The translations under genes and the position numbers were made by a program. Below are positions 10,668 through 55,913 of a stretch of DNA of 64,000 nt, in pieces. The stretch covers positions 730 to 64,729 of the forward strand of contig JAEDMR010000001.1 of NCBI GenBank assembly GCA_016302925.1. Reading direction: 5' to 3'. The DNA is from Bacillota bacterium. Lineage in GTDB: Bacteria; Bacillota; Clostridia; Peptostreptococcales; Anaerovoracaceae. Below the pieces are notes generated by a model that was given only the letters and a program-made list of their open reading frames with translations, searched no databases and had not been told where the DNA came from. Every line of letters starts with the position of its first letter. Position 1 is the first letter of the stretch.

Positions 10668-11932
10668 ATTTCTGCCTCTTCTGTTCTCTTTCCTGTGCAG
10701 GTGCACCGGCGTCCGTCCTCGGTTATTCCGGTATCTCTGCAGATTTCGCAGGAATACTTTAAGTCAGTATAGTCAATGGGAAAATCGTTTTCCGTAAGAA
10801 GAACGGCCCGCTCACTTTCCAGCTCCTTCATCTGACGCCGTATGTCTTCGATGTCACTTCGTTTTCCTCCGGAAAGAAGGCTGCGTGAAATATTGCTGCC
10901 CATTTCTGCAAGCATTCTGTCAATCTGCTCGATGCGCGGCAGCTTTTTATAAACCAGTTCCTTTCTTTCCTGCGCTTCCTTTTCTTCCTTCTTTCGAAGG
11001 AATTCGTAGTATCTATTGAGTATAGTCTGTGTGACTGTTATTTTCTTATTTACGTCTCTTCCTTCTTTTCTGGCTTCCTGATACCAGTTTTCCAGTATTT
11101 TATTTACATACCGAAGGTTGGGATTGGAAATGGACACGGTTCGTCCGCATGCCTCCAGCACTCTTTCCAGGCTGAAATGCATTTCATCAAACCAGCGGTT
11201 CATCAGCTCCTTCTCAGCTTCTGTTGCACTTCGATTCATCCCCAGAGACTGAAGGATTCTCTTCTGCATTCCAAATCGCTGATCCATTTCATCCAGATAT
11301 TTCTGTACATCTTCTTTTGTCTGAAATCCCTGCTCGGTCCATTGCATCACGACTCTGGAAATGTATTTTACATTGCTTTTTCCACGGTTCACACAGTAAC
11401 TGTAAGCCTGCCTGATGACTTCCGGCTTCGTGCCCAGATCCGTCAGCCAGCTGTGAATCTCCTGTGCCTCCACCGTGCTTATAGTACGCCCCGTAATCCT
11501 CTGAATATCTGCAAGGAGCGATTTCACATCCTGATTCTGCAGCAGTTCATCGTTTTCCTCTCCATAGGATTCTGTTTCCTCCTGCTCTGCTGTCAGCGGA
11601 CTTCTGTACATCTGCTCCCTCAGATGCAAAAACTCCACGTCATAGTTCAGTCGGCAGGCGTTTTCCTTCTCTTCAAAACGGGGATGCTTTTTCACAACCC
11701 CCATATCCGCCCAGTAAGTCCATGCCTGATCCACCTGATCCAATGACAAGCACAACTGGCGGGCCAGGGTTTCATGACTCATTTCTTCCCTCTGCTGCGC
11801 ATACATAAATCCGAACAGGTAGACCTTCACGTGGTCCCCCGGCGCACCCGGCATATATTCATTCAGAAAAATATTTTCAATTTCGCTTGTCAGAAGATAA
11901 AAATCCTTTATCTTTCCCTTGATATAATTCAT
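10649..11932 (-). CDS. DnaD/DnaB-type replication co-loader with C-terminal coiled coil and Cys-rich tail
   Basis: Two YxxxIxxxW DDBH2-type motifs (KYISRVVMQW, RYVNKILENW). These are followed by a K/E coiled coil and YSCEICRDTG...RRCTC. A GGAGG RBS is present. Confidence 0.7.
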   Translation of the reverse strand: MNYIKGKIKDFYLLTSEIENIFLNEYMPGAPGDHVKVYLFGFMYAQQREEMSHETLARQLCLSLDQVDQAWTYWADMGVVKKHPRFEEKENACRLNYDVEFLHLREQMYRSPLTAEQEETESYGEENDELLQNQDVKSLLADIQRITGRTISTVEAQEIHSWLTDLGTKPEVIRQAYSYCVNRGKSNVKYISRVVMQWTEQGFQTKEDVQKYLDEMDQRFGMQKRILQSLGMNRSATEAEKELMNRWFDEMHFSLERVLEACGRTVSISNPNLRYVNKILENWYQEARKEGRDVNKKITVTQTILNRYYEFLRKKEEKEAQERKELVYKKLPRIEQIDRMLAEMGSNISRSLLSGGKRSDIEDIRRQMKELESERAVLLTENDFPIDYTDLKYSCEICRDTGITEDGRRCTCTGKRTEEAEIWQKSN

Positions 11933-11950
11933 GTAGGGCCTCCGTCAGCT

Positions 11951-12142
11951 TTATTCTGTCGCCTCATTCAGCGCTGCCAGAAGGCATTCCAATCTGACGC
12001 CGTGTCCTTTTGCTGCCTCTTCCAGAGTTTCACTTTCCGCTCCCGGACAGCCTGCGCATGTCAGCAGAAATTTTTCGAACACCCGGCCATACTGCTGCCC
12101 CATATTCAGAACTTCAATAACGGTCATCTCTTTCGTAATCAT
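11951..12142 (-). CDS. DUF1858 / hybrid-cluster-protein-associated redox disulfide domain protein
   Basis: 63 aa: MTVIEVLNMG...FEKFLLTCAGCPGAESETLEEAAKGHG, including the CxGC motif. An AGGAG RBS is present. Confidence 0.65.
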   Translation of the reverse strand: MITKEMTVIEVLNMGQQYGRVFEKFLLTCAGCPGAESETLEEAAKGHGVRLECLLAALNEATE

Positions 12143-12175
12143 CGCTGCTGCTCCTTTCCGCTTGCGCTTTCCGAT

Positions 12176-13495
12176 TTACAGTGCTTTATCGCTGAATTTC
12201 GTGTATCGTTCAACCCACGTCAGTTCTACTTTATCCGTAGGTCCACTTCTGTGCTTGGCTACATTTACTTCGCAGATTCCGTGTTTGTCGCTGTTATCCG
12301 GATTGTAATAGTCGTCCCTGTAAAGGAAGATGACAATATCCGCATCCTGTTCTATGGAACCGGATTCCCGCAGATCGGATAGAATCGGCCGGTGATCCTG
12401 CCGAAGCTCCGGAGCCCGTGACAGCTGAGACAGAACAATGACCGGACAGTCCATCTCTCTGGCCAGCAGCTTCAAATGTCTGGAAATTGCCGAAATCTCC
12501 TGCTGACGGCTGTCCGCTTTTCCGTCAAACTGCATCAGCTGCAAATAGTCAATCACCACCAGATCCAGTCCGTGCTCCGCTTTCAGTCGGCGGCATTTAT
12601 TTCGCATTTCCATAATAGAAATGCCCGGTGTATCATCGATAAATATTTTCGAGCTGTGAAGCTCATCCAAGGCCATATTCAGTCGGTCCCAATCCTTACG
12701 GTCCAAGGTTCCGGTTTTCAGCTTCTGCATCTCTACTCTGGCCTGTATGGCAAGGAGCCGCTGTCCCAGCTGCTCCTTCGACATTTCCAGACTGAAAATC
12801 AGTACGGAAGATCCTGCCTTTACTGCCGTCTGCTGTGCGATGTTCAGTGCAAAGGCAGTTTTTCCCATAGCCGGCCGTGCTGCCAGTATGATCAGATCCG
12901 AACGATGAAGTCCCGATGTCAGTTCGTCCAGATCCTTGAACCCTGTAGGAATTCCTACTACTTTACCTTGATTCTTTGATGCCGCATCAATGATTTCCAC
13001 ATTTTTCAGCAATATATCCTGTATCTGGGTGTAATCGTTTTTCTGACGCTTCTGACCAATCTGAAAAATTCCCGCTTCTGCGAAGTTCAGGACTTCCTTC
13101 GCTTCATCCTTCCCTTCGTAGCCCTTGTTCATGATTTCTTCGGCTGTATTGATCAGCTGACGGAGAGCTGCTTTTTCGGAAACGATTTTCGCATATTCTC
13201 CTGCATTTACGGTAGACGGCACTGCTGTTGTGAGTGTCGCGATATATGCTCTGCCTCCCACCATGTCCAGTGCTTTCTTTTTTTTCAGTGTTTCACACAC
13301 CGTCAGCATGTCTACCGGTGAATTTTCTCTGTACAGATCCATGATTGCCTTGTAAATCTCCCGATGATTTTCGTTATAAAAATCATCGGCAGTTACTTCT
13401 TCAATCACATCATACAGTGCGTCTTTGCTGAGCATGGACGCACCGAGTGCGCACCGCTCCGCTTCCTCATTATGGGGCGGGATCCGTTCTACCAT
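12176..13495 (-). CDS. dnaB: Replicative DNA helicase
   Basis: 439 aa: PPHNEEAERCALG, Walker A ARPAMGKTAFALN, IDYLQLM, SQLSRAPE. rplI-dnaB synteny. Confidence 0.97.
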   Translation of the reverse strand: MVERIPPHNEEAERCALGASMLSKDALYDVIEEVTADDFYNENHREIYKAIMDLYRENSPVDMLTVCETLKKKKALDMVGGRAYIATLTTAVPSTVNAGEYAKIVSEKAALRQLINTAEEIMNKGYEGKDEAKEVLNFAEAGIFQIGQKRQKNDYTQIQDILLKNVEIIDAASKNQGKVVGIPTGFKDLDELTSGLHRSDLIILAARPAMGKTAFALNIAQQTAVKAGSSVLIFSLEMSKEQLGQRLLAIQARVEMQKLKTGTLDRKDWDRLNMALDELHSSKIFIDDTPGISIMEMRNKCRRLKAEHGLDLVVIDYLQLMQFDGKADSRQQEISAISRHLKLLAREMDCPVIVLSQLSRAPELRQDHRPILSDLRESGSIEQDADIVIFLYRDDYYNPDNSDKHGICEVNVAKHRSGPTDKVELTWVERYTKFSDKAL

Positions 13496-46351: not shown

Positions 46352-48472
46352 TTACTCTTTTTCTGTCAGATGATCCATGATCTTTTGAATCCAATTCTCC
46401 TCGTAAGGGTAATCACGCTGCAGGTGGATCAATATCTTTTCGTATATGGAAAACGCCTCTGCTGATTTCTTCTCCAGGGCAAGCACATCCGCCAAAATTT
46501 CAAGCTGGGAAAGAGAATCCTTATACTTTTCACCTCGATACAGGAGTGCGGACTGTACATTCTCGCGGGCTGCTTTTTCCGCCTCCGCCAGCCGATTTTC
46601 ATCGATCAGAAGTGCGATCTGCAGCTCCTTGAAGGCTGTTTTTCGATAACCCAGATCTTCCCGGCTTTTCATCCATGTTTCGATGGTCGCATAGAGTTCT
46701 CTGGAAATAGCAATGCGCCCCTCGCGCAGCGCATGTTTTGCTTCTTCCAGCAAAACATAGTTCTGCTTCATCGAAAACCGCTGCTTCTGGAACGCAGGGA
46801 GGTCTTTGTCATCCATCTGCAGAATGGCCTCCACAATCTGCAGACACTCGGCCGCATATTTGTTCCGGGCAACTGGGTCCTGGCGGTGGCTGTATTCCTT
46901 TGCAAGCTTAGCGCAGGCGGAACTGAGCTGGTCCATCACTTCAAAGGTTCGTGGCGTCACCGCCTTCAGCAGTTCATATCCCTTTTGATACCACATAAGC
47001 GCATGATCGTGATCCATATGGTTATGATAGACAGCTGCCACCCGGAGGGCTTCTCTTCCCGGAAGAACATGGTTGGGACCATAATAATTCATAACGGCTT
47101 CGTAGACTTTTACGGCATAGGGCAGCGCTTCTTCATAATATCCCTGAACCCACAGAAAGGTAACAATCTCCTCGAAAGCGGTGGCCAGCCATGGGGCAGG
47201 GTCCGGAAACGTCTCATAGACAGCAAACACATGCGGCTCCAGGATCCGGTTCTCCTCATAGGTGCGGTTCCATGTACAGATCCCGATATCATCTCCGTAC
47301 ATATACTTCTCGAAGCCACGCAGCAGACGACTGCAGTTGATACATGTTGGCGGCATGATACGCCTGACGGCCTCGGCGATCAGAGGATGTACACGGAGAA
47401 GGAGACGGGCTTCTGTCTCTCTGCCCGGATCTTCCGGGGAATGTTCCGTCGTTTTTCCCAATACAAGAACATCCATCAAAAGATAATTCCGAAGCGACCG
47501 GAGTGTATGTTCCGATGCGCCGGATATCTGGAGAAACAGATCTTTTTCCATTCCCTGCGGTGCAAGAACGGACAAATACAACAGGGTTTCCCATTCAGCT
47601 TTTTTCAACCGGAAAGAGGAAAGCAGGGAAGTAATGTGGGATCCGTTGCCGGGAGGTCCGGACAGTTCTCCATAGGAAGCCTGGACGGATGCCATTTTGA
47701 TGCTTAATGTGTGGCCTTCCACCTGATAACCGTACTGCAGAAGCTGTTCTGTTTTTTCCGGTTCCAGTCTGCCGGAACAGGTTTGAATCAGTTTTGGCCA
47801 GTATTCCGGGGGCAGGGCGTTGACCAGAAGCTTTTCCTTTTCCGGCACGATTTCATAGTTTACTCTTGTGGTTATGATCTTATCGCAGGAAAGCTCCAGA
47901 AACTGACGAAGGTCCTTATCTGCGGGCATATTCATATTATCGATCACGATCAGAATTTTTTTCTTTTCACTGATTTTTTGCAGGGCACGGAGCTTTTCCC
48001 GATAATACTGCCGCAGCACAGGATACCTTTTCCGGTCATACCGCAGGCCGGAAATGGGAACGGAAGAATCATCACAGACAGCCTGGAGGATCCCCCTGTC
48101 GGTTACGATGTAAAGGACATGATCATACGCAAGGTGATATCTGGCGAGATATGCAAGAGCAATCGCCGTTTTTCCGATGCCGCCGATGCCCTGCAGCAAG
48201 GCGGTGTGAAAAGAGGCAAGCATGTCATGGACAGCGGCAAGCTCTTCTTCCCGCCCGATCAGAGGGAAGGAAGCGGAAGGCAGAGCGGTATCCATGATTT
48301 TGAAATGCCTGTGTTCCAGAAAGCAGGTGTATTCCTCTTTCCAGGTCTCCCAGGCAGCTTTTTCGGCTTCCGGAGAGGAAAATCCGGGCGGGGTGTCCGC
48401 GTATTTTTTCTGCAGCAGAAGCTGGTGCTTTTTCCATAGCAAAAGCTGCTCCTGATAGTTAAAATCTTTCAT
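46352..48472 (-). CDS. NB-ARC/STAND P-loop NTPase with C-terminal TPR-like array, no effector domain
   Basis: LIGREEEL..GIGGIGKT (Walker A), ILIVIDNM (Walker B), KIITTR, GHTLSIKMA, then about 270 aa of helical repeats. Confidence 0.75.
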   Translation of the reverse strand: MKDFNYQEQLLLWKKHQLLLQKKYADTPPGFSSPEAEKAAWETWKEEYTCFLEHRHFKIMDTALPSASFPLIGREEELAAVHDMLASFHTALLQGIGGIGKTAIALAYLARYHLAYDHVLYIVTDRGILQAVCDDSSVPISGLRYDRKRYPVLRQYYREKLRALQKISEKKKILIVIDNMNMPADKDLRQFLELSCDKIITTRVNYEIVPEKEKLLVNALPPEYWPKLIQTCSGRLEPEKTEQLLQYGYQVEGHTLSIKMASVQASYGELSGPPGNGSHITSLLSSFRLKKAEWETLLYLSVLAPQGMEKDLFLQISGASEHTLRSLRNYLLMDVLVLGKTTEHSPEDPGRETEARLLLRVHPLIAEAVRRIMPPTCINCSRLLRGFEKYMYGDDIGICTWNRTYEENRILEPHVFAVYETFPDPAPWLATAFEEIVTFLWVQGYYEEALPYAVKVYEAVMNYYGPNHVLPGREALRVAAVYHNHMDHDHALMWYQKGYELLKAVTPRTFEVMDQLSSACAKLAKEYSHRQDPVARNKYAAECLQIVEAILQMDDKDLPAFQKQRFSMKQNYVLLEEAKHALREGRIAISRELYATIETWMKSREDLGYRKTAFKELQIALLIDENRLAEAEKAARENVQSALLYRGEKYKDSLSQLEILADVLALEKKSAEAFSIYEKILIHLQRDYPYEENWIQKIMDHLTEKE

Positions 48473-48475
48473 GGT

Positions 48476-49402
48476 TCAGGTCTCTTTCTTTTCCAGCGTT
48501 TTAAAATAGAATGGACGAAGCCTGTTCTGCCCCTGCGCACACAGATACTGATCGGTATAACGGAAGGCTTCCTGAAGCCATCTGCGGCATTCTTCCGGAC
48601 TTTTATGAAGGCAGCGGTCCCTGTACAGAGCAAGGATCTGCAGCAGCATGGCGTCGAAACGCTCTCCGCTGGTCAGCGTATGTTCCGCACGCAGCGGGCA
48701 GTATCCAAAAGAGGATAAATACAGATTGATTACCCGTTCATTGAGAAAGGGGATGCACATGATCAGGATATGCCGGATCATGGTTTTCCGCGGGATCTCC
48801 CCGAAAAGCTTCATATTCTTCAACAATTCGGAGCCGTAGGAGATACTGGTCATACGGCTGATTTGACGGGTATCGGATTCGGCAGACCGGAAGGTATATT
48901 CACAGGCCTGGCTGAAGTAGATATGCCGCAGGCTGGGAAGCGGATCCTCTGAGAAAATTCCGTATTTTCTCCGTTCCATCGGATGAAGTTTGCACAGATA
49001 TTCCTGAATCATCGTGTCCATGATTCTGCGCCGCTCCTGGTAGAGCGGGCTGTCAGCATCGGATGCATCAAAGACCAGATCACTTCGGTCCGCATAGACC
49101 TGCAGCAGATACTGCTGATCTTCACCGCTCAGTTCCAGTGCTTTTCCGAACATCAGAACCTGCTTCCGGTCAGAAGGGACATGATGTCCGGTTCGCCAGA
49201 ATCGAACCTTTGTAATTTGTGAATCCTGCTCCGGCAGAGCAGCATACATTTTTTCATATAGAAGCATATCGGCATCTCTTTTTGTGGTCAGACCGTTCTT
49301 CTTCATAAAAAGGAGATACTGCTTCTGCAGCCATTGCACTTCCGGTCTGACATCAAGCGATTTCAAAAGGATGTCATCCAGAATTCTTTTCAGTTCATCC
49401 AT
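48476..49402 (-). CDS. Hypothetical protein with two degenerate XRE/HTH_31-like motifs
   Basis: 308 aa. WRTGHHVPSDRKQVLMFGKALELSGEDQQYLL and GEIPRKTMIRHILIMCIPFLNERVINLYLSSFGYCPL resemble the G..P.r..l..la.aL.l...e...LL..aGy.P tail of XRE-type HTH domains. Its stop lies 3 nt from the STAND start. Confidence 0.45.
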   Translation of the reverse strand: MDELKRILDDILLKSLDVRPEVQWLQKQYLLFMKKNGLTTKRDADMLLYEKMYAALPEQDSQITKVRFWRTGHHVPSDRKQVLMFGKALELSGEDQQYLLQVYADRSDLVFDASDADSPLYQERRRIMDTMIQEYLCKLHPMERRKYGIFSEDPLPSLRHIYFSQACEYTFRSAESDTRQISRMTSISYGSELLKNMKLFGEIPRKTMIRHILIMCIPFLNERVINLYLSSFGYCPLRAEHTLTSGERFDAMLLQILALYRDRCLHKSPEECRRWLQEAFRYTDQYLCAQGQNRLRPFYFKTLEKKET

Positions 49403-49444
49403 CGGTATTGTTCCTTTGATTCATGATTTATGATACGAGTATCA

Positions 49445-50788
49445 TTATGTTTTTTGCAGTTTGTGACGCATGAAGCGCCGATAGCGGAGAATCGCAGCGA
49501 AACCTGCTCCGATCCTGCTGAGTGCAAGCCCCAGGCAGACGGCAAGATAGCCTATCCGGGGAATCAGCGAAGCCATGGCAATGTTGATCGTCATTTCGAT
49601 AAAGCCGAAGAAAGGCATGGCCCGGTAATCTCCCATGGATTGCAGAGAATATCGCAGAATGACCAGTGCGGTGAGAAACGGATAGGACACAACGATGATC
49701 CGCATCTGAAAGATTCCTGCCTGAACGGCTTGGAGAGAAGCGCCATCTCCTGCCAGTCCGCGGATCATAGCAGGAGCAAACGCCAGGGACACGATTACAA
49801 TCAGCAGACAAACAGGCAGAGAACGACGATAGAGTCGGCGAACATAATCATGAACCATGCGGTAGTCGCCGCGGCCCGCATTTTGTCCAACGATCACAAC
49901 GGCTGCCGTTCCGTATACGCTGAGCAGTTCTGTGAACAGGGAGGTATACTGATCGGAATAGGCATCTCCGGCAAGCAGGTCGGCAAGCAGATTGTTTTCC
50001 ATCCGCTGCATGAAAAAAGAACCGATGGACAGGAACAGGAACAGAAGGCCCTTGGAACAGCCGTTGATCAGAGTATCCAGATAATGCGCCCTTTGTATGG
50101 CAAATGGGGAAAGAAAGGAGATCCGGCCGCCGGATAGCTTCCCCAAAAACCAGGCAAGGACCAGGACCTGCCACAGATTGTTGATCAGCATGGCAAGCGC
50201 CGGGGCGGTAATTCCCGTATGCAGGCCGGCAATCAGGAAAATAACCAGAAAAGTCTGCACCACAACGCCTGCCATGGATAACATGGCCGGGACAGCGCTG
50301 TTTCCCATTCCCTGAATGGTACTGATCAGGATCAGCTTCAGATAAAGAAGTCCCGCGCCCAAAAGGATGACCCGGAAATAGGCGGTCGCATCCGACATCA
50401 GCGCTTCCGGAATATTGGCCTGCTGCAGGATGATTTCGGAGAACAGAGGAAAGGACAGACAAAGGACACCCATGGCTGACGTCAGATATACTGCGCCCCA
50501 GAATCCCTGACGGATTTCTTCCGGATCATCGGAGCCGATACAGCGGGAAAGGCGTACGCCAAATCCACTGACAACGGCCGCAAACATGGAATTGATGATG
50601 GACACACATCCGGAACATGCACCGGTCACTGCCACCGCGTTCTGACTCAGATATCTGCTGATGACTGCCGTATTCACCATGGCATAGATACATTGGAATC
50701 CTGCGGAAAGGAAGAAGGGAAACAGAAACCATCGCAGTTCCTGGTTTCCGATTCTCTGTGTGAAATCAAGCTGTCGGAATCGTTTCAT
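49445..50788 (-). CDS. MATE family efflux transporter
   Basis: Start is placed at MKRFRQLDF (GGAGAA RBS); the ORF opens at 50857. It has 12-TM-like hydrophobicity and N-terminal LRWFLFPFFLSAGFQCIYAMVNTAVISR, typical of the MATE family. Confidence 0.8.
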   Translation of the reverse strand: MKRFRQLDFTQRIGNQELRWFLFPFFLSAGFQCIYAMVNTAVISRYLSQNAVAVTGACSGCVSIINSMFAAVVSGFGVRLSRCIGSDDPEEIRQGFWGAVYLTSAMGVLCLSFPLFSEIILQQANIPEALMSDATAYFRVILLGAGLLYLKLILISTIQGMGNSAVPAMLSMAGVVVQTFLVIFLIAGLHTGITAPALAMLINNLWQVLVLAWFLGKLSGGRISFLSPFAIQRAHYLDTLINGCSKGLLFLFLSIGSFFMQRMENNLLADLLAGDAYSDQYTSLFTELLSVYGTAAVVIVGQNAGRGDYRMVHDYVRRLYRRSLPVCLLIVIVSLAFAPAMIRGLAGDGASLQAVQAGIFQMRIIVVSYPFLTALVILRYSLQSMGDYRAMPFFGFIEMTINIAMASLIPRIGYLAVCLGLALSRIGAGFAAILRYRRFMRHKLQKT

Positions 50789-50873
50789 TTGACATTCTCC
50801 GTATGGTTCATAATCAATGGTCTGTGTACAAACTGGATTACAGGATAATTTAAACATAAAAGCAACATCAGAG

Positions 50874-50919
50874 CAAGCAAGTAAATTTTAACATTTAATT
50901 GTTAACTTTCACTTGCTTG
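50874..50919. promoter_or_regulatory. Nested palindrome in the divergent MATE / Sel1-island control region
   Basis: Outer arms CAAGCAAGT (50874-50882) / ACTTGCTTG (50911-50919). Inner arms TTAACA (50888-50893) / TGTTAA (50900-50905). The right outer arm overlaps candidate -35 TTGACG (50917-50922), which sits 17 nt upstream of TAAAAC (50940-50945). Confidence 0.5.
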
Positions 50920-50994
50920 ACGGTAGGAAAACGGAATGCTAAAACAAAAATGTATAAGACTATCAAAAATATCTTCTAGGCAAGGAGGCACTGA

Positions 50995-52542
50995 ATGTTA
51001 ATTGTAATTATCTTAGTCCTTGTTGGCGTTCTCGTTTTTTTGAAAATGAAGAAGGACAGAGCGGCTGACGCCCGTTTTCTGCAGGAAGAGACGGCGTGGG
51101 AACAACAAGTGGCGGCGCGGAAAAAAGATGGGGAACCGAAGGTATGCACGAAAATGCCGTCTCTTGAAGGAAAAGGCAAAACCGTTATCGGGCCGGATGG
51201 AAAAAACTATCCGAAAACAGTTTTGGAGAAAAATTATTATGGCGTCATCCGGGATTTTTTCCGAGAGGATGCAGAGGATTACGCACATGCAAAATACGAA
51301 TGCAGTCCGCTGTTCTGTATGGCTGCAATGGAATATTATATCCTGGAATATTTTTATGGAAGTTTCGACTGGGGGAAACCTGAAACACTGACCAGAGAAT
51401 ATGTGGAAAAAGGCATTTCCTGTATTTATGAGGTGGCAGAAAATTATGCATATCCGGCCATGCAGGATAACGATATGATTCAGGCACAGCATTATTCTGT
51501 ACGGAGAACGGCAGATAAAACGCGTGCCATGGCGGGCAATGGTTACTATAAAAATGTATACGAGATCCCTGTCAATATGGATAAAGCGTTGAATTTCTAC
51601 AGAATGCCGGAGAAACTGCGTGAGAAATATCCGGATTATGTGGGGCAGGCAGGCAAGGACTGTGTCATTACCATGGTAAAATGCTGGCTCCAAACGGCGC
51701 ATATTTATTCTGCCCGGCAGGAGGCAGAGAAGGCAAAAAAGCTTTACAGTCAGGTATATCAGATGGCAGTCCGCTTTTCTCTTGATGATATGATTATGGA
51801 GCTGATCCATGCTTTAACATCAGGGTATCCCAGAAATCCGGCAGACTATCAGGATCATGCATATAACATTTTAGCAGATTGGGCCTGCAACAGCGACCTG
51901 GGACTTGCTATGTATGAAGAATATGTACTTCATATAAATGGGCTGGACAAGACCCGAATGGCAAAGAGTCCTGAAGAGGCCGTCAAGCTGTATCGGGAAC
52001 AGGCAGAAAGCAATCACTATGCTGCTTATCTGCTTGGTCAGGCAACGCTATTCGGCTACGGAACCGAAAAGAATGAGGCGTATGGACACAAGATGATAGA
52101 GATTGCGGCAGAAAATGGCTGTATCTCTGCTCTGTTTGCATTGATTCAGCTTTCTGCGGAAAGCAGAGAAGAATCAAAGAAATGGCAGTCCGATTTCGAG
52201 AAGACGGTTGCCGTTGTTGTGGCAGTAAGCAGTTCTGTGCGAGACGTACTAAAGCAGAGTGGAAAGGATGTAACGAAACAGCGTTTTGCGGAGATAGAAC
52301 GCAGTCTTGCGGAAGCGGAACGAAAACAGCAGACGGAAGCAGCAGTGGATACACAGGAAACAAAGGAGGGCTTCACTTTCCCTGTCGCTTTCTGCGACGA
52401 AAATATGAATCGCTGGGAACGGGGAGATGTTTTGTTGGGCGTTGCCCTGTATCAGTGTATGAGTACGGGAGAAATCAGAAATCTGGATCAGCGAGATATC
52501 CGGCGGCTTGAAAGAACCACGGGAATGCAGATTGAGTATTGA
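50995..52542 (+). CDS. N-terminally membrane-anchored Sel1-like repeat protein
   Basis: MLIVIILVLVGVLVFL TM helix followed by KMKKDR. Sel1-like unit: EEAVKLYREQAESNHYAAYLLGQATLFGYGTEKNEAYGHKMIEIAAENG. AAGGAGG RBS. Confidence 0.65.
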   Translation: MLIVIILVLVGVLVFLKMKKDRAADARFLQEETAWEQQVAARKKDGEPKVCTKMPSLEGKGKTVIGPDGKNYPKTVLEKNYYGVIRDFFREDAEDYAHAKYECSPLFCMAAMEYYILEYFYGSFDWGKPETLTREYVEKGISCIYEVAENYAYPAMQDNDMIQAQHYSVRRTADKTRAMAGNGYYKNVYEIPVNMDKALNFYRMPEKLREKYPDYVGQAGKDCVITMVKCWLQTAHIYSARQEAEKAKKLYSQVYQMAVRFSLDDMIMELIHALTSGYPRNPADYQDHAYNILADWACNSDLGLAMYEEYVLHINGLDKTRMAKSPEEAVKLYREQAESNHYAAYLLGQATLFGYGTEKNEAYGHKMIEIAAENGCISALFALIQLSAESREESKKWQSDFEKTVAVVVAVSSSVRDVLKQSGKDVTKQRFAEIERSLAEAERKQQTEAAVDTQETKEGFTFPVAFCDENMNRWERGDVLLGVALYQCMSTGEIRNLDQRDIRRLERTTGMQIEY

Positions 52543-52558
52543 GAAAGGAGATTTCCAC

Positions 52559-53836
52559 ATGAAAAAGACAAAAAGTATTCTAAGTATACTGCTCAGCGTT
52601 CTGCTGATTCTGACAGTGTTGCCGATGGCATCTGCACCTGCATTTGCCGTTGAAACGACAAATAGTCAGGATGGCAACTGGGGGATTTATGCGGATTATA
52701 ACAAAAATACATGTACAATTTACGGGTATTACGGCAGCGAAGCCAACCTGAAGATACCTTCTAAAATCGATGGACTGAAAGTGACCAAAATCCAGCTGTC
52801 CACAGGCGGCAGTCCTTGGACAAACAATTACACAAACCGCAATTCGATTGTAACAATCGAAGTACCGGATACCATAACAGAGCTTGGATATGCATCCTTT
52901 GCGAATCTGCCGAATCTGAAATCCGTGAGCATTCCATCTTCTGTGAAAACTTTTGGAGCCAGCCTTTTCGCCTGGTCCACATCTCTGGAGGAGTTTACGA
53001 TTCCCAAAAATATGAAGGAAATTCCAAACGGAATGTTTAGCAGCTGTACTTCACTAAAGAATGTGACCATCCACAGCGGAGTCACGGCCTTAGGCGAAGG
53101 CGCTTTCGCCGGATGTACATCCCTGAAGACGATCAAGCTTCCGTCTAAGCTGAAAACGATCGGGGAAAGGTGTTTTGGCACCTCCAGTGCAGACTGGTGC
53201 GGACTGGAAAGTATCTCTATTCCGAATTCTGTGACCTCCATAGGATGTTATGCCTTTAACCTCTGCAAAAATCTGACCGAGGTGAAGATGTCCACAAGGA
53301 TAGAAGAAATCGGAAGTAATGCTTTTAGTGAATGTGAAAATCTGAAATCCATCACGATCCCATCCAGCTGCAAGAAAATAGAATACGGGGTCTTCGATGA
53401 CTGTGACAGCCTGACTACCGTGGTCTTCAGAAGCGATCTGAAACTGCCGTCTTACAGCTCACCGCTTCATGCCTCTTCTCTTTTAACCGTATATTCTGCT
53501 TCCTCCGAAAAGGCTGTCAGAGAATACTGTTCTGAAAAAGGAATACGCTGGAAATCACTGAATCCGCCGAAACTGACCAGCAAGAAACGGACAGCGACGA
53601 CGGCCACCCTGAAGTGGAGTTCTGTTTCCGGCGCTGTGGGCTACAAAGTATACATGAAGACCGGAACCGGTTCCTACAAGCTGATGAAAACTACTACCGA
53701 CCTCAGCTATAAAGCCACCGGCCTGAAAAAAGGCGTCACCTACCGGTTCTATGTGACCACCCTGAAAGAAGACGACCTGGGTCAGAATATTGAAAGCAAG
53801 GGCTCATCCGTATATAAAACATATCTGAAAAAATAA
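52559..53836 (+). CDS. Secreted BspA-type leucine-rich repeat protein with C-terminal FN3 domain (paralog 1)
   Basis: Start MKKTKSILSILLSVLLILTVLPMASAPAFA (signal peptide, AAAGGAG RBS). Repeated ..IP.SV..IG..AF..C..L..I.. units (LRR_5 type). FN3-like tail: ATLKWSSVSGAVGYKVY...TYRFYV. Confidence 0.8.
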   Translation: MKKTKSILSILLSVLLILTVLPMASAPAFAVETTNSQDGNWGIYADYNKNTCTIYGYYGSEANLKIPSKIDGLKVTKIQLSTGGSPWTNNYTNRNSIVTIEVPDTITELGYASFANLPNLKSVSIPSSVKTFGASLFAWSTSLEEFTIPKNMKEIPNGMFSSCTSLKNVTIHSGVTALGEGAFAGCTSLKTIKLPSKLKTIGERCFGTSSADWCGLESISIPNSVTSIGCYAFNLCKNLTEVKMSTRIEEIGSNAFSECENLKSITIPSSCKKIEYGVFDDCDSLTTVVFRSDLKLPSYSSPLHASSLLTVYSASSEKAVREYCSEKGIRWKSLNPPKLTSKKRTATTATLKWSSVSGAVGYKVYMKTGTGSYKLMKTTTDLSYKATGLKKGVTYRFYVTTLKEDDLGQNIESKGSSVYKTYLKK

Positions 53837-53897
53837 TTGCGGATGGCATAACAAAATGTGCCATGTACGTAACGGAGGGCGAGTATCATGAAGAAAA
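53834..53897 (+). repeat. Conserved structured intercistronic leader, copy A
   Basis: The 52-nt core at 53846-53897 is 48/52 identical to 57842-57893. Hairpin ATGGCA/TGCCAT (53843-53848 / 53859-53864) has a TAACAAA-containing loop and is followed by GTACG..ACGGAGG..CGAGTATC-ATGAAGAAAA. Confidence 0.7.
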
Positions 53898-55174
53898 GCA
53901 AATTAGAAAGGAAAACATTGATGAAAAAGATGAAAAAAACACTTTGTCTCCTGCTCATGTTCATGGTTGCCGCAATGGCATTTCCAACGGTGAGCTTTGG
54001 TGCAAACGAAATCGTAAGCCAGGACGGAAACTGGCGTTACATCCCGGATTATAACAAGGATACCTGCACAGTCATCGGCTACTACGGCTCTGATGCGGAC
54101 GTGTCCATTCCATCCGTTGTGGATGATCTGAAGGTGACCAGACTGGATTTTCAATTTCAGGTGGCTGCACCGCATAACCGGTGGATGAACCCGGAACCTG
54201 TCGTCAGCATTACAATCCCGAACACAGTAACTTCATTGGGAAATTTCTGCTTTGCCGAACTGCCGAATCTGAAGAAGATCACAATCCCTTCTTCTGTGAA
54301 AGAATTTGGAAAAGGTCTTTTCGACTGGTGCACCTCATTAGAGGAATTCACAATACCGGCAAATATGAAGGAAATTCCTTCGGAGACGTTTGAAAACTGC
54401 ACCTCTCTGTCGAAGGTAACCATCCATTCCAAGGTGACCAGTATCGGATATTCAGCATTCGCTGGTTGTACTTCCCTAAAGCAGATCAAGCTGCCTTCAG
54501 GCCTTAAGAGCATCGGAGGACAATGCTTCTTCGGCAGCGGTCTGGAAAGTCTTTCAATACCGAATACCGTATCCGATCTGGGTGGAGGTATCTGTGACTA
54601 TTGCACAAATCTGACTTCTGTCAAGTTTACGACCAATGCGAATGTCAAGGAATTGCCGTATAACAGTTTTTACCGCTGCTCGAATCTTAAGACGATCACC
54701 ATCCCGTCCAATATCAAGTCCATGTACTCCGGTTTTAGTGAATGTCCGAATCTGACAACGGTAATTGTCCGCAATGATAACCTTGATATCATCGGCGGTC
54801 TTGAGCAGACTGCAGTACTTACAGCATACTCTTCCTCAAAGGCAACCAAACTGAGAGAATACTGCTCGAAAAAAGGCATCCGCTGGAAACCACTGGATCC
54901 GCCGACATGGATTAGCAAGAAGCGGACAGATACAACAGCATCCCTGAAGTGGAAGTCCGTTACAGATGCTGTGGGCTATAAAGTCTATAAAAAGACCGGT
55001 TCCGGCTCCTATAAGCTGCTGAAGACCGTTACCGGCACAAGCTATAAGGCAACGGGTCTGAAGAAAGGCACCACTTACAGATTCTATGTAACAACGCTGA
55101 AAGAGGATGCTCTGGGCAATCTGATCGAAAGCAAGGGCTCATCCGTATATAAAACATATCTGAAAAAAAGCTGA
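53888..55174 (+). CDS. Secreted BspA-type leucine-rich repeat protein with C-terminal FN3 domain (paralog 2)
   Basis: Signal peptide MKKTLCLLLMFMVAAMAFPTVSFG. Same LRR_5 + FN3 layout as 52559..53836. The last ~39 nt (GSSVYKTYLKK) are identical to paralog 1. Confidence 0.8.
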   Translation: MKKSKLERKTLMKKMKKTLCLLLMFMVAAMAFPTVSFGANEIVSQDGNWRYIPDYNKDTCTVIGYYGSDADVSIPSVVDDLKVTRLDFQFQVAAPHNRWMNPEPVVSITIPNTVTSLGNFCFAELPNLKKITIPSSVKEFGKGLFDWCTSLEEFTIPANMKEIPSETFENCTSLSKVTIHSKVTSIGYSAFAGCTSLKQIKLPSGLKSIGGQCFFGSGLESLSIPNTVSDLGGGICDYCTNLTSVKFTTNANVKELPYNSFYRCSNLKTITIPSNIKSMYSGFSECPNLTTVIVRNDNLDIIGGLEQTAVLTAYSSSKATKLREYCSKKGIRWKPLDPPTWISKKRTDTTASLKWKSVTDAVGYKVYKKTGSGSYKLLKTVTGTSYKATGLKKGTTYRFYVTTLKEDALGNLIESKGSSVYKTYLKKS

Positions 55175-55196: not shown

Positions 55197-55913
55197 ATGT
55201 TACGCGGATTATTTGGTCGAAAAGCACTCTCAAAAGAGACTGTATCCAATGACACGGAAAAGAATCATCCTCCGGTCAAGTCGATCAGTGAAATGAAGAA
55301 CCTGGAAGAAATACAACAATATTATGATATGGTTTGCAAGATCGAAGATCCGGCAGTCCGCGCCAGGGAACTTCAACCGTTTGCCGAAGCCGGGTTCCAT
55401 CAGGCTATGCTCAAGCTGGCACTGGCAAATGAAGCGTGCGGAAAAACGGAGGAAGTTTTCACATGGCTGAAAAAAGCCGCAGAAGCGGGAAATTATGCTG
55501 CGTATTATGAATGGGGAATCCGAACGCTGCAGGGGGCTGCAGAATTGGCAAAGCAGCAGGGATATACGGATGAGAGCCTTTTAAGAGCCGGTTTAAGCCA
55601 GCTGTGCGATGCGGCAGGCGGCGGCGTGCAAAAGGCAGTACAGGCTTTGACTGCGTATAACCATGCGGAACGGGAAGAGGCGGCGCAGGTGATTCAGCCT
55701 GTTCTGGATGAAAATCTGAAAGAATGGGCGCAAATTCTGGATGAGAATGATACTCTGGCGCATGCGCAGTATACCAAAGGGCTCTGGTATTTTTACGGGG
55801 TAGGATACGCCCAGGACCTGGACAAAGCCAGAGAGTGGCTGCAGAAAGCTGCGGCCCAGGGACACCAGGATGCAAGAGATCTTCTGGAGAATCCGCTTCT
55901 GGCAGAATTTTAG
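55197..55913 (+). CDS. Sel1-like repeat protein, no signal peptide
   Basis: WLKKAAEAGNYAAYYEWG and GLWYFYGVGYAQDLDKAREWLQKAAAQGHQDA are canonical Sel1 units. Confidence 0.7.
   Translation: MLRGLFGRKALSKETVSNDTEKNHPPVKSISEMKNLEEIQQYYDMVCKIEDPAVRARELQPFAEAGFHQAMLKLALANEACGKTEEVFTWLKKAAEAGNYAAYYEWGIRTLQGAAELAKQQGYTDESLLRAGLSQLCDAAGGGVQKAVQALTAYNHAEREEAAQVIQPVLDENLKEWAQILDENDTLAHAQYTKGLWYFYGVGYAQDLDKAREWLQKAAAQGHQDARDLLENPLLAEF

Follow-up and report, generated by a model that had tools for sequence, protein, structure and literature searches.

STAND ATPases have been described in two roles, as switches for immunity or cell death and as bacterial activators made of a single chain, such as MalT, AfsR, and GutR. 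A 706-aa member encoded in the 64,000-nucleotide stretch of DNA analyzed here (the window) raises the question of how such a switch could act when its own chain carries no output domain. An earlier note on this sequence had described the protein, which we call A2, as a STAND/NB-ARC NTPase with a TPR array, had proposed that its output is supplied in trans by the translationally coupled upstream gene (here A1), and had left open whether the pair is a regulator or an Avs-type system. The features of the locus are collected in Table 1.

Table 1. Coordinates of the STAND gene, its neighbors, and their promoters in the window
Feature	Position	Strand	Evidence
STAND NTPase A2, 706 aa: N-terminal hairpin, NB-ARC-like NOD, winged helix, TPR sensor	46352..48472	-	ORF, alignment, profiles, AF2, Foldseek
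A2 residues 1-69, conserved two-helix hairpin (H6-23, H34-55)	48266..48472	-	Alignment and secondary structure
A2 residues 70-372, NOD	47357..48265	-	Motifs, alignment, AF2 model, Foldseek
A2 residues 373-706, arm and TPR-like sensor array	46355..47356	-	TPR_12, helices, structural matches
Partner A1, 308 aa, all-helical; inferred output (DNA-binding) subunit	48476..49402	-	
A1 residues ~20-103, predicted XRE-like helix-turn-helix region	49094..49345	-	Invariant columns, AF2 helices, Foldseek
MATE-family transporter (MatE), first operon gene	49445..50788	-	PF01554 2.8e-22, TIGR00797 4.3e-24
Box 1 TGTTAAAATTTAC, facing MatE-A1-STAND	50881..50893	-	PWM 34.3 bits, 30-promoter alignment
Box 1 promoter: -35 TTGCTC, 17-nt spacer with TG, -10 TTAAAT	50871-50876 (-35), 50848-50853 (-10)		
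Box 2 TGTTAACTTTCAC, facing Sel1-like gene	50900..50912	+	PWM 19.5 bits, inverted repeat, alignment
Box 2 promoter: -35 TTGACG, 17-nt spacer with TG, -10 TAAAAC	50917-50922 (-35), 50940-50945 (-10)		
Sel1-like 515-aa protein, N-terminal TM helix and Sel1/TPR-like repeats	50995..52542	+ (divergent)	Weak Sel1 and AlgK_TPR matches
Shared cassette: bidirectional promoter, MatE, A1, STAND	46363..50968	.	blastn of close loci against the window

Identity and architecture of A2

The motifs named in the earlier note were all found where it had placed them: the Walker A motif GIGGIGKT (nt 48167-48193, translated as QGIGGIGKT), the Walker B segment ILIVIDNM (nt 47933-47956), and KIITTR, GHTLSIKMA, and LLYLSVLAPQG. 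In an alignment of 28 A2 family members sharing 30-93% identity, the columns without any variation coincide exactly with the hallmarks of STAND proteins, including G95, G97, G98, G100, and K101 of Walker A, G73-R74 (within LIGREEEL), D178 of Walker B, R203 in the TTR of sensor I/RNBS-B, and G253-H254-x-L256 at the GLPL position, which reads GHTL and not GLPL. At the MHD position, H362-P363 is invariant and lies at the end of the winged helix, after a beta hairpin (E334-338/E356-360). The residue following D178 is Asn in the clade of the window protein (IDN) and Asp (DD) in relatives of 30-36% identity; judging from the sequence, A2 probably retains nucleotide binding with this Asn, and its hydrolysis may be slowed.

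Profile searches were weak for the window protein by itself, with AAA_16 (1.2e-6) and TPR_12 (2.6e-6, residues 429-503) both slightly below their gathering scores, nSTAND3 at 0.015, and no match to Pfam NB-ARC (PF00931) at E<=1; NCBIfam returned the FxSxx_TPR N-terminal NTPase at 1.6e-17. The NB-ARC profile was matched by 21 of the 28 relatives at E<=1e-3 (best, 2.8e-9), and relatives fused to A1 score 27.9 bits (L058/L063) and 34.3 bits against a gathering cutoff of 23.5. Searching PDB sequences with the family profile recovered PH0952 (8e-11), Sr35, Roq1, AfsR, and Apaf-1. The AF2 model of A2 (pLDDT 89.1, pTM 0.80) has an NB-ARC-like NOD, a winged helix, and a TPR region, and Foldseek ranked PH0952 first (3.2e-13, probability 1.00), with plant resistosomes (G10/Sr35/NRC), RPP1, CED-4, Apaf-1, Avs3, and Avs5 as further matches, all at probability 1.00. 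The modeled TPR array of approximately 300 aa comprises ∼14 helices (residues 405 to 705), and the TPR region also matches kinesin-light-chain, APC, and consensus-TPR proteins in the profile and Foldseek comparisons. The STAND/NB-ARC and TPR assignment is thus borne out by the family alignment, the AF2 model, and Foldseek, and A2 is indeed a STAND ATPase of the NB-ARC type whose sensor is a TPR array.

The earlier statement that A2 has no output domain in cis also holds, in that only the 69-aa hairpin precedes the NOD, nothing follows the TPR array, and the chain has no DNA-binding domain. The hairpin is nevertheless conserved, with Y24, T27, P28, and G30 invariant among the 28 sequences (loop KYxDTPPGF), and it is retained between the partner and the NOD in natural A1-STAND fusions. 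We infer that it is a candidate docking or linker element for A1.

The partner protein A1

The stop codon of A1 (TGA) is followed 3 nt downstream by the ATG of the STAND gene in the same frame. When metagenomic loci were retrieved independently, from the STAND side, each of the 7 full-length STAND relatives had A1 as its immediate upstream neighbor, compared to none of 64 generic NB-ARC loci. In several lineages, A1 is fused in frame to the N terminus of the STAND (L058, L063, P0191, P0226, P0196, and P0236), giving proteins of ∼990-1030 aa (987 aa in P0191 and 999 aa in P0226) in which A1 holds the N-terminal effector position. The coupled gene spacing, the 7/7 linkage, and these fusions agree with an output provided in trans and support the view of A1 as a detached N-terminal output domain of A2. 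Two other candidate fusions, a sigma-TM N terminus joined to the C-terminal half of A1 (P0237) and a STAND N terminus joined to A1 (L052), are single cases that look like deletions or assembly chimeras and were set aside.

Among 80 genome loci found through A1, the A1, STAND, and MatE genes occur in six orders (MatE-A1-A2, A1-MatE-A2, A1-A2-MatE, MatE-A2-A1, A2-MatE-A1, and A2-A1), with MatE present in only slightly more than half of the STAND-type clusters. We take the functional unit to comprise at least three genes, MatE-A1-STAND, together with the bidirectional promoter. The A1 family is not exclusive to STANDs, since one subclade pairs instead with a membrane-anchored ECF-sigma-like protein, an arrangement that has no clear place in a split-STAND model.

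A1 belongs to a family of 152 representatives (clusters at 50% identity) among 1.84 billion proteins, and every source name seen for it is "hypothetical protein." HMMER searches of the 1.84 billion representatives recovered only the A1 family and its fusions and no remote annotated relatives. The A1 protein of the window had no Pfam, NCBIfam, PHROG, or PADLOC match; Pfam searches of 38 A1 members returned noise only, with no HTH family (HTH_3, HTH_31, or HTH_19) at E<=1, and the A1 profile gave no HTH link among PDB sequences, the single match being a spurious lipocalin (E 0.24). Comparison by hhalign with an XRE alignment drawn from the loci gave a probability of <1%, which is a weak test because the template held only 7 sequences, and hhalign of the N-terminal against the C-terminal half of A1 found no internal duplication.

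The AF2 model of A1 (pLDDT 91.4) has helices at residues 20-35, 41-53, 60-71, 79-88, and 93-103, and this region includes one of two invariant motifs, K-x-R-x-W-R-T-G-x-x-x-P-x-x-R (residues 65 to 79), the second being GEIPRKTMIRH. Local Foldseek matches in two independent libraries are overwhelmingly XRE HTH domains, including P22 c2, DdrO, ClgR, and many phage HTH_XRE proteins, and cover 65-79 columns at an rmsd of 2.7-3.5 Å and a TM(target) of 0.55-0.62 (probability 0.6-0.89), with every E-value >0.1. The model therefore suggests that A1 contains an XRE-like HTH fold, seen by structure only, which would occupy residues ∼20 to 103, and we regard A1 as probably a new, predicted DNA-binding module.

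The RNPP/Rgg regulators (ComR, Rgg2, and PrgX) resemble A1 in length (∼300 aa) and layout, with an N-terminal XRE-like HTH followed by an all-helical domain, and they top its whole-chain Foldseek list (E 0.18-4). At a TM of ∼0.18 and an rmsd of 15-21 Å, with no sequence similarity, this is not a fold match, and A1 differs from RNPP proteins in relying on a separate STAND or sigma-like partner and apparently not on peptide binding of its own.

The promoter box and the shared cassette

A conserved box, TGTTAAAnTTTAC, precedes A1 operons and abuts a sigma-A-type promoter with a TTGc -35, a 17-nt spacer, and a TG-extended TAnnnT -10. It was detected by a k-mer/PWM approach that replaced a generic palindrome finder, whose output was noisy because the start codons are guessed. 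There are 44 exact TTAAAnTTTAC sites with common flanks, and an alignment of 30 diverse promoters has invariant G10, T11-T12, A13-A14, C21, T23, T27, and G28. Of 72 A1 loci, 50 have the box ahead of the gene that opens the cluster, as do 36 of the 46 STAND-type loci; the other 22 of 72 A1 clusters have no match at the threshold used. The PWM gave 139 matches in 1.25 Mb versus none on either strand of 600 kb of shuffled sequence, and 428 kb of NB-ARC loci without A1 contained 5 weak matches. Seven loci held out of PWM building yielded 7 matches in 53 kb, and the four strongest of these (in L085, L086, and L087) were checked and lie immediately upstream of MatE/A1 or just past the STAND. The fixed geometry of these boxes beside the -35 of their targets tracks the A1-STAND system, and we consider them putative, dedicated binding sites.

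Because the box accompanies STAND-type and sigma-type partners alike, the protein in common is A1, and no other protein is shared by all of the box-carrying clusters. The same co-occurrence would fit another box-recognizing factor, with A1-STAND serving as a signaling or scaffold pair that acts elsewhere, for example on the MATE pump, a sigma factor, or an envelope process. Sequence methods (Pfam, PDB profile, and hhalign) detect no HTH signal in A1, the subclade with a membrane-anchored ECF-sigma-like partner hints at a protein-protein function, and GEIPRKTMIRH has no assigned role. However, the XRE-like fold was recovered repeatedly, A1 sits in fusions at the N-terminal effector position held by the DNA-binding domains of PH0952, AfsR, and GutR, and its invariant motifs are paralleled by an invariant box, and we consider a separate box-reading regulator quite improbable.

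In the window, the two boxes are oppositely oriented and 6 bp apart, and jointly they make a 46-bp palindrome (50874-50919). A palindrome over divergent promoters could also be an operator from which ligand-activated STAND removes or sequesters an XRE-type repressor, A1, leading to derepression. Derepression is the usual logic of efflux-pump regulators, and stand-alone XRE proteins and pump regulators are mostly repressors. The palindrome also overlaps a promoter-like GTGAAA-16-TAAAAT with a TG extension, which would make the boxes operator-like and repressive; this element was the first promoter guess, from a consensus scan of the window, and was set aside for the comparative promoter architecture. 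Against repression, the 30 divergent promoters place the box at a constant position immediately before a weak TTGc -35, which a 17-nt spacer separates from an extended -10, and this is typical activator geometry; in addition, most loci have one box or a second copy 6 to ∼47 bp away and not an operator over the core promoter, and the known STAND regulators MalT, AfsR, and GutR are activators. A repressor role is unlikely on this evidence, and we retain activation as the preferred reading.

MatE probably starts at the ATG at 50788, which has GGAGAA 8 nt before it; the ATG listed for this gene, at 50857, falls within the promoter. On the other side, Sel1-like genes recur downstream of boxes, and homologues of the window Sel1-like protein adjoin the cassette in four loci (L004, L012, L014, and L026), and this gene is likely a second target of the box. 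Nucleotide similarity of ∼89-91% to genomes of other families begins and ends at 46363/50968 by blastn, GC skew is ∼0 within these limits versus +0.15 in the flanks, and in some genomes the cassette adjoins a MobA/MobL relaxase. From these sequence comparisons, the 4.6-kb cassette is shared among different families of gut Clostridia at ∼90% nucleotide identity and appears to be horizontally transferred. Plasmid and phage collections gave no match for the cassette or A1, and no riboswitch or leader RNA was found in the cassette at E<=0.3.

Proposed mechanism and relation to known STAND proteins

We lean toward a STAND transcription activator that is split in two and controls an efflux cassette, in which A2 is the sensor and switch subunit and A1 is the detached output. 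In this scheme, the XRE-like HTH of A1 would contact the box, where A1 probably sits as a dimer on the near-palindrome TGT(T)AAA-n-TTTACA, and A1 would dock on the STAND, possibly through the 69-aa hairpin. The TPR sensor would read a cytoplasmic ligand, plausibly a pump substrate or other xenobiotic, that lifts STAND autoinhibition and allows ADP/ATP exchange and oligomerization, as in MalT, GutR, AfsR, and PH0952. The oligomer could then gather A1 units at the boxes (∼-52 to -40) and activate both promoters, turning on expression of the MATE exporter, the envelope protein, and A1-STAND as well. With Asn in place of the second acidic residue of Walker B, ATP hydrolysis may be slow, and the ON state would then be long-lived.

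STAND regulators with an N-terminal DNA-binding output are already established, and A1-STAND is an extension of them and not a new category. Among solved structures, the nearest relative is PH0952 of Pyrococcus horikoshii (PDB 6mfv), for which a role as a transcription factor has been predicted (PMC6468293). It is the best match to A2 by both sequence and structure, and although identity is only ∼15%, both proteins have an NBD-HD-WHD NOD, an arm, and a TPR sensor; PH0952 differs in carrying a putative ArsR-like DNA-binding domain in cis at its N terminus, where here the proposed output is a protein of its own, 308 aa long, from a family that is unannotated and unrelated to that domain. Streptomyces AfsR (SARP-NOD-TPR) shares the NB-ARC-type NOD and TPR with weak profile matches, and its N-terminal DNA-binding domain acts at a box adjoining or overlapping the weak -35 of a housekeeping-sigma promoter (PMC10936776). 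AfsR carries its SARP (an OmpR-type wHTH plus BTAD) in cis, recognizes direct repeats centered at -29.5, and is controlled by phosphorylation, whereas for A1-STAND the predicted fold is XRE-like, the output would act in trans, and a single near-palindromic box lies at ∼-46.

GutR of Bacillus subtilis is a Firmicute protein with an HTH, an NTPase, and TPRs, and its domain order is reproduced by the natural A1-STAND fusions, which would thus have a DNA-binding domain on the STAND chain itself provided that A1 is such a domain. GutR and MalT have been cited as non-immune STAND regulators (PMC13581612). Both GutR and Escherichia coli MalT resemble the logic proposed here in their small-molecule inducer, ATP binding, oligomerization, and activation of transport or catabolic operons. 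They differ in being single polypeptides with catabolic operon targets in place of a MATE exporter, and the DNA-binding domain of MalT is C-terminal and of the LuxR type, with no detectable homology to A1.

Avs (AVAST) proteins likewise combine a STAND NOD with a TPR-like sensor, and the A2 model matches Avs3 (1.9e-7) and Avs5 (3.4e-6). An Avs-like two-gene antiphage system, in which the TPR senses a phage protein and oligomerization frees A1 as a new effector of toxicity or abortive infection, would be in keeping with this architecture and structural likeness, with a horizontally mobile cassette beside a relaxase in some genomes, and with the TIR or kinase effectors borne by the nearest outgroup NB-ARC proteins. 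But the Avs proteins have killing effectors such as nucleases, proteases, or SIR2 domains, whereas Pfam found no nuclease, TIR, SIR2, or protease domain in A2 or A1, and A1 lacks the features of an enzyme or a pore former and, in its modeled HTH-like fold, looks DNA-binding. The STAND, A1, MatE, and Sel1-like proteins matched no PADLOC family and nothing meaningful in PHROGs, no neighboring defense genes were seen within the window, and the family is conservative in sequence (89-98% identity across hosts) and not diversifying. The pair is also tightly linked with a MATE pump and with a regulon defined by its own promoter box, and on all of these grounds a defense function is very unlikely. Of the two options left open by the earlier note, a regulator is thus favored, by the HTH-like fold of A1, the tracking of A1 by the box, and the likeness to PH0952, and the Avs-type option is disfavored by the empty PADLOC and PHROGs results.

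More tentatively, and in our view less likely than not, A1 could be a hitherto undescribed and portable output module for transcription in gut Clostridia, linking the TGTTAAAnTTTAC promoter class to interchangeable sensors, with MatE-A1-STAND as a self-contained, spreading "sense-and-pump" cassette. The sensors would be cytoplasmic NB-ARC/TPR STANDs, split or fused, or, in one derived clade, an ECF-sigma-like protein that is anchored in the membrane and exposes a large extracellular domain, and the cassette would turn on efflux and envelope proteins when the TPR senses a host, dietary, or drug molecule. If so, it would be the first known case of a STAND regulator that works through a DNA-binding subunit able to detach.

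If correct, the split-activator reading would assign a function to the unannotated A1 family and to the sharply defined promoter box of many Lachnospiraceae and related genomes, and the natural split version, with its fused relatives as controls, would offer a direct way to study how NOD oligomerization reaches a DNA-binding module. The version in the window is a regulator plus MATE-pump cassette that is ∼90% identical across families of human and animal gut anaerobes, and if what its TPRs sense is a drug or a compound from bile or the diet, it would be a mobile inducible efflux determinant.

The 706-aa STAND protein and its relatives

The 706-aa protein (STAND) belongs to the clade of NB-ARC-type STAND NTPases. 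Its translation reads QGIGGIGKT and ILIVIDNM at exactly the nucleotide ranges that an earlier note had assigned to Walker A (48167-48193) and Walker B (47933-47956). Profile support from this one sequence is marginal: AAA_16 (1.2e-6) and TPR_12 (2.6e-6) both fall slightly under their Pfam gathering scores, Pfam NB-ARC gives no match, nSTAND3 is matched at 0.015, and the NCBIfam FxSxx_TPR NB-ARC-like N-terminus matches residues 70-221 at 1.6e-17. We recovered 44 full-length or near-full-length relatives (~640-725 aa, down to 30% identity), with PF00931 present in the distant ones and an NB-ARC match in 21 of 28 aligned members. Columns invariant across these 28 include Walker A, Walker B Asp178, TTR Arg203, Gly253-His254 and His362-Pro363 at the MHD position; the second acidic residue of Walker B is Asn in the clade of the window protein. 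The family profile retrieves the TPR-sensor STAND PH0952 (8e-11), plant NLRs, AfsR and Apaf-1 from PDB sequences, and the AF2 model (pLDDT 89) matches PH0952 (3.2e-13), resistosomes, Avs3, CED-4, Apaf-1 and Avs5 with a probability of 1.00. Taken together, the alignment, profile and structural evidence removes the doubt left by the weak single-protein profiles and confirms the earlier STAND/NB-ARC assignment.

Residues 1-69 are conserved as a helical hairpin whose loop, KYxDTPPGF, is invariant. The window protein belongs to no known defence family, and we regard an Avs-like defence system, the alternative raised by the Avs3 and Avs5 matches, as very improbable.

Features of the window discussed here (ORFs for STAND, A1, MatE and the divergent Sel1-like protein are from the ORF list)
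Feature	Position	Strand	Remark
STAND	46352-48472	-	706 aa
A1, partner protein	48476-49402	-	308 aa; upstream of STAND
MatE, as listed	49445-50857	-	470 aa; upstream of STAND
Palindrome	50874-50919		46 bp; MatE/Sel1-like intergenic region
Box 1	50881-50893	-	faces MatE; -35 TTGCTC, -10 TTAAAT
Box 2	50900-50912	+	faces Sel1-like gene; -35 TTGACG, -10 TAAAAC
Sel1-like protein	50995-52542	+	515 aa; divergent
BspA-type surface protein	52508-53836	+
BspA-type surface protein	53888-55174	+
Sel1-repeat protein	55197-55913	+
DnaA	26533-27924

A partner family linked and fused to STAND

Searches of Pfam, NCBIfam, PADLOC and PHROGs found nothing for A1, the protein encoded directly upstream of STAND. Its family comprises 196 clusters at 90% identity, those with a source name all being called "hypothetical protein." A search of 1.84 billion proteins gave 152 family representatives at 50% identity and no annotated distant relative. 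The family is small and tight, with two invariant motifs, K-x-R-x-W-R-T-G-x-x-x-P-x-x-R (residues 65-79) and G-x-I-P-R-x-x-M-x-R (residues 201-210).

The earlier note had proposed that the output of STAND is supplied in trans by this upstream gene. We assessed the linkage from the A1 side, with HMMs of both families across 80 genome loci, and from the STAND side, in a metagenome scan. STAND adjoins A1 in most of the 80 A1-retrieved loci, often together with a MatE gene, in the orders MatE-A1-A2, A1-MatE-A2, A1-A2-MatE, MatE-A2-A1, A2-MatE-A1 and A2-A1 (A2 being STAND), and the persistence of linkage through shuffled gene orders argues for functional coupling. In the metagenome scan A1 lies directly upstream in 7/7 loci with a full-length STAND family member versus 0/64 with generic NB-ARC proteins; the closest outgroups instead have cis-encoded effectors, of the kinase or TIR type. 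A1 is also fused in frame to the STAND N-terminus in two loci (L058 and L063) and in the proteins P0191, P0226, P0196 and P0236, with the 69-aa hairpin between the two parts. A1 thus holds the canonical effector position, which, with the 7/7 linkage, supports output in trans.

The A1 stop codon (TGA) is followed 3 nt on by the STAND ATG in the same frame. In the clade of the window and some others the genes are divided in this way, by TGA and one codon (48473-48478 in the window; also L004, L024, L026, L055 and L086), and they overlap out of frame in other loci. Given the natural fusions, the two genes seem to have been split or fused recently at this same-frame junction, and read-through yielding a fused protein is conceivable. 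Some loci pair two STAND paralogues with a single A1 (A1-MatE-A2-A2 and A1-A2(short)-MatE-A2; L015:12243-16527 and L027:2398-7254), which suggests that several sensors may share one output subunit. Two chimeras, one case each, are probably deletions or assembly artefacts: an ORF at L052:1185-3113 joining the STAND N-terminus (to ~residue 272) to A1 from ~residue 45, and P0237, in which a sigma-TM N-terminus is joined to the C-terminal two thirds of A1.

The predicted A1 structure is all-helical (pLDDT 91.4, pTM 0.90). A whole-chain structural search returned no significant match, the best being the RNPP regulators ComR, Rgg2 and PrgX (E 0.18-4, TM ~0.18). Local matches in PDB and BFVD were overwhelmingly XRE-type HTH domains, among them P22 c2 on operator DNA, DdrO, ClgR and many phage HTH_XRE proteins (65-79 columns, rmsd ~3 Å, TM(target) ~0.6, probability up to 0.89). 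The invariant RxWRTG...P..R stretch may correspond to the recognition helix of an XRE-type domain together with the turn after it. Profile tests of A1 at the sequence level gave no sign of an HTH. An XRE-like DNA-binding fold is, on the basis of the model, likely, and we consider it improbable that A1 does not bind DNA.

A promoter box shared by A1 clusters

Each arm of the palindrome between MatE and the Sel1-like gene is one copy of a box, TGTTAAAnTTTAC, found by searching the loci; the palindrome is kept in close relatives, and in L068 compensating changes affect both outer arms. Exact TTAAAnTTTAC sites number 44 in 1.25 Mb, with the same flanks in nearly all, and a 27-nt PWM gives 139 matches in the loci and window versus 0 in 600 kb of shuffled sequence (both strands). 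An alignment of 30 diverse sites has the fixed layout AAAATGTTAAAnTTTAC-nTGnTTGc-17 nt-(TG)nTAnnnT, placing the box at approximately -52 to -40, where it abuts a sigma-A-type -35 element and an extended -10. The box precedes the first A1-cluster gene in 50 of 72 loci (36/46 of STAND type); the first ORF past it is A1 at 34 sites, MatE at 14 and a sigma-like gene at 10, and the remaining sites precede Sel1-like repeat proteins or a variety of membrane and surface proteins. Among loci left out of PWM building, the 7 metagenome A1+STAND loci contain 7 matches in 53 kb, and the four strongest that we checked (L085, L086, L087) closely precede MatE/A1 or closely follow STAND; NB-ARC loci without A1 contain 5 weak matches in 428 kb. 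The window has exactly two matches, both at the cassette formed by the bidirectional promoter, MatE, A1 and STAND, and the position of the box 1 promoter points to the ATG at 50788 as the real start of MatE.

Where A1 seemed to be alone, the gene directly upstream encodes a 590-700-aa protein with ECF-type sigma regions (Sigma70_r2 and r4), a TM helix and a large extracellular region (L049:7809-9836, L064:2008-4113, L072:7793-9880, L083:6405-8180 and ~10 more). The A1 sequences of this type form one clade nested among STAND-associated A1 in an NJ tree, and the box precedes these operons too. All box-bearing clusters therefore have A1, and no other protein, in common; this is the main argument that the box is read by A1 and not by STAND or the sigma-like protein.

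Additional boxes occur directly past STAND or on divergent neighbours (L017:12823, L018:3117, L020:9392, L021:3235, L086:8036, L087:6888), with 4-6 each in L075 and L076. They precede Sel1-like repeat, small membrane, radical-SAM, Hsp70-like and large surface proteins, indicating a regulon larger and more varied than an efflux pump. In the window, three closely spaced genes of the same orientation come after the Sel1-like gene: two encode paralogous BspA-type surface proteins with LRR and fibronectin-III repeats, the third another Sel1-repeat protein. These genes may be on the box 2 transcript, and if the BspA-type genes are, surface proteins would be part of the output.

Genomic setting and proposed function

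Core proteins identify the window as part of an Anaerovoracaceae MAG. Cumulative GC skew turns at DnaA, with a minimum near 26-27 kb where gene orientation also flips, and the surroundings (about 16-36 kb) are the chromosomal origin region. The cassette lies ~20 kb from oriC, transcribed head-on to replication and against its otherwise co-directional neighbours, with a local GC skew of ~0. Synteny with a related MAG (L004) extends over 15 kb, and nucleotide similarity of 89-91% starts and stops at 46363 and 50968 in Allofournierella massiliensis An912 (Oscillospiraceae), Subdoligranulum, Oscillibacter and other bins. A MobA/MobL relaxase lies near the cassette in L001-L003; none of the plasmid or phage records carries the cassette.

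In the cultured isolate An912 (L006:10928-13078) one in-frame stop divides STAND into ORFs 10928-12763 and 12767-13078, which could reflect a pseudogene, a sequencing error or a read-through site. A variant at L003:1653-4028 has lost MatE and most of A1: the 57 aa that remain of A1 lie between the adjoining relaxase gene and an intact STAND, and no box is present upstream. A 281-aa protein whose N-terminus is a canonical HTH_3/HTH_31 domain (L001:11097-11942; also L002 and L003) is encoded just past the relaxase-linked cassettes; the window lacks it and has rpsR-ssb-rpsF at that place.

The reading best supported by our analysis is that a putative split STAND activator controls the cassette. 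We hypothesize that A1 binds the box and that the STAND TPR domain senses a cytoplasmic ligand, upon which STAND would swap ADP for ATP and oligomerise; the oligomer would assemble or activate A1 at the divergent promoters and so induce the regulator along with the MATE pump and the Sel1-like envelope protein. A variant in which the A1-STAND regulator acts as a repressor and induction is by derepression seems rather unlikely. The NOD switch is established for MalT, GutR, AfsR and PH0952 (PMC6468293, PMC10936776, PMC13581612), and the principle behind the A1-STAND system is not new. The proposed activator would work like these proteins but lacks their defining feature, a DNA-binding domain in cis, and A1, as a putative DNA-binding family, has no detectable relation to theirs. 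The system is compact and clean and lends itself to experiments, having a defined candidate operator and occurring naturally both split and fused; it may be relevant to inducible efflux in gut anaerobes.
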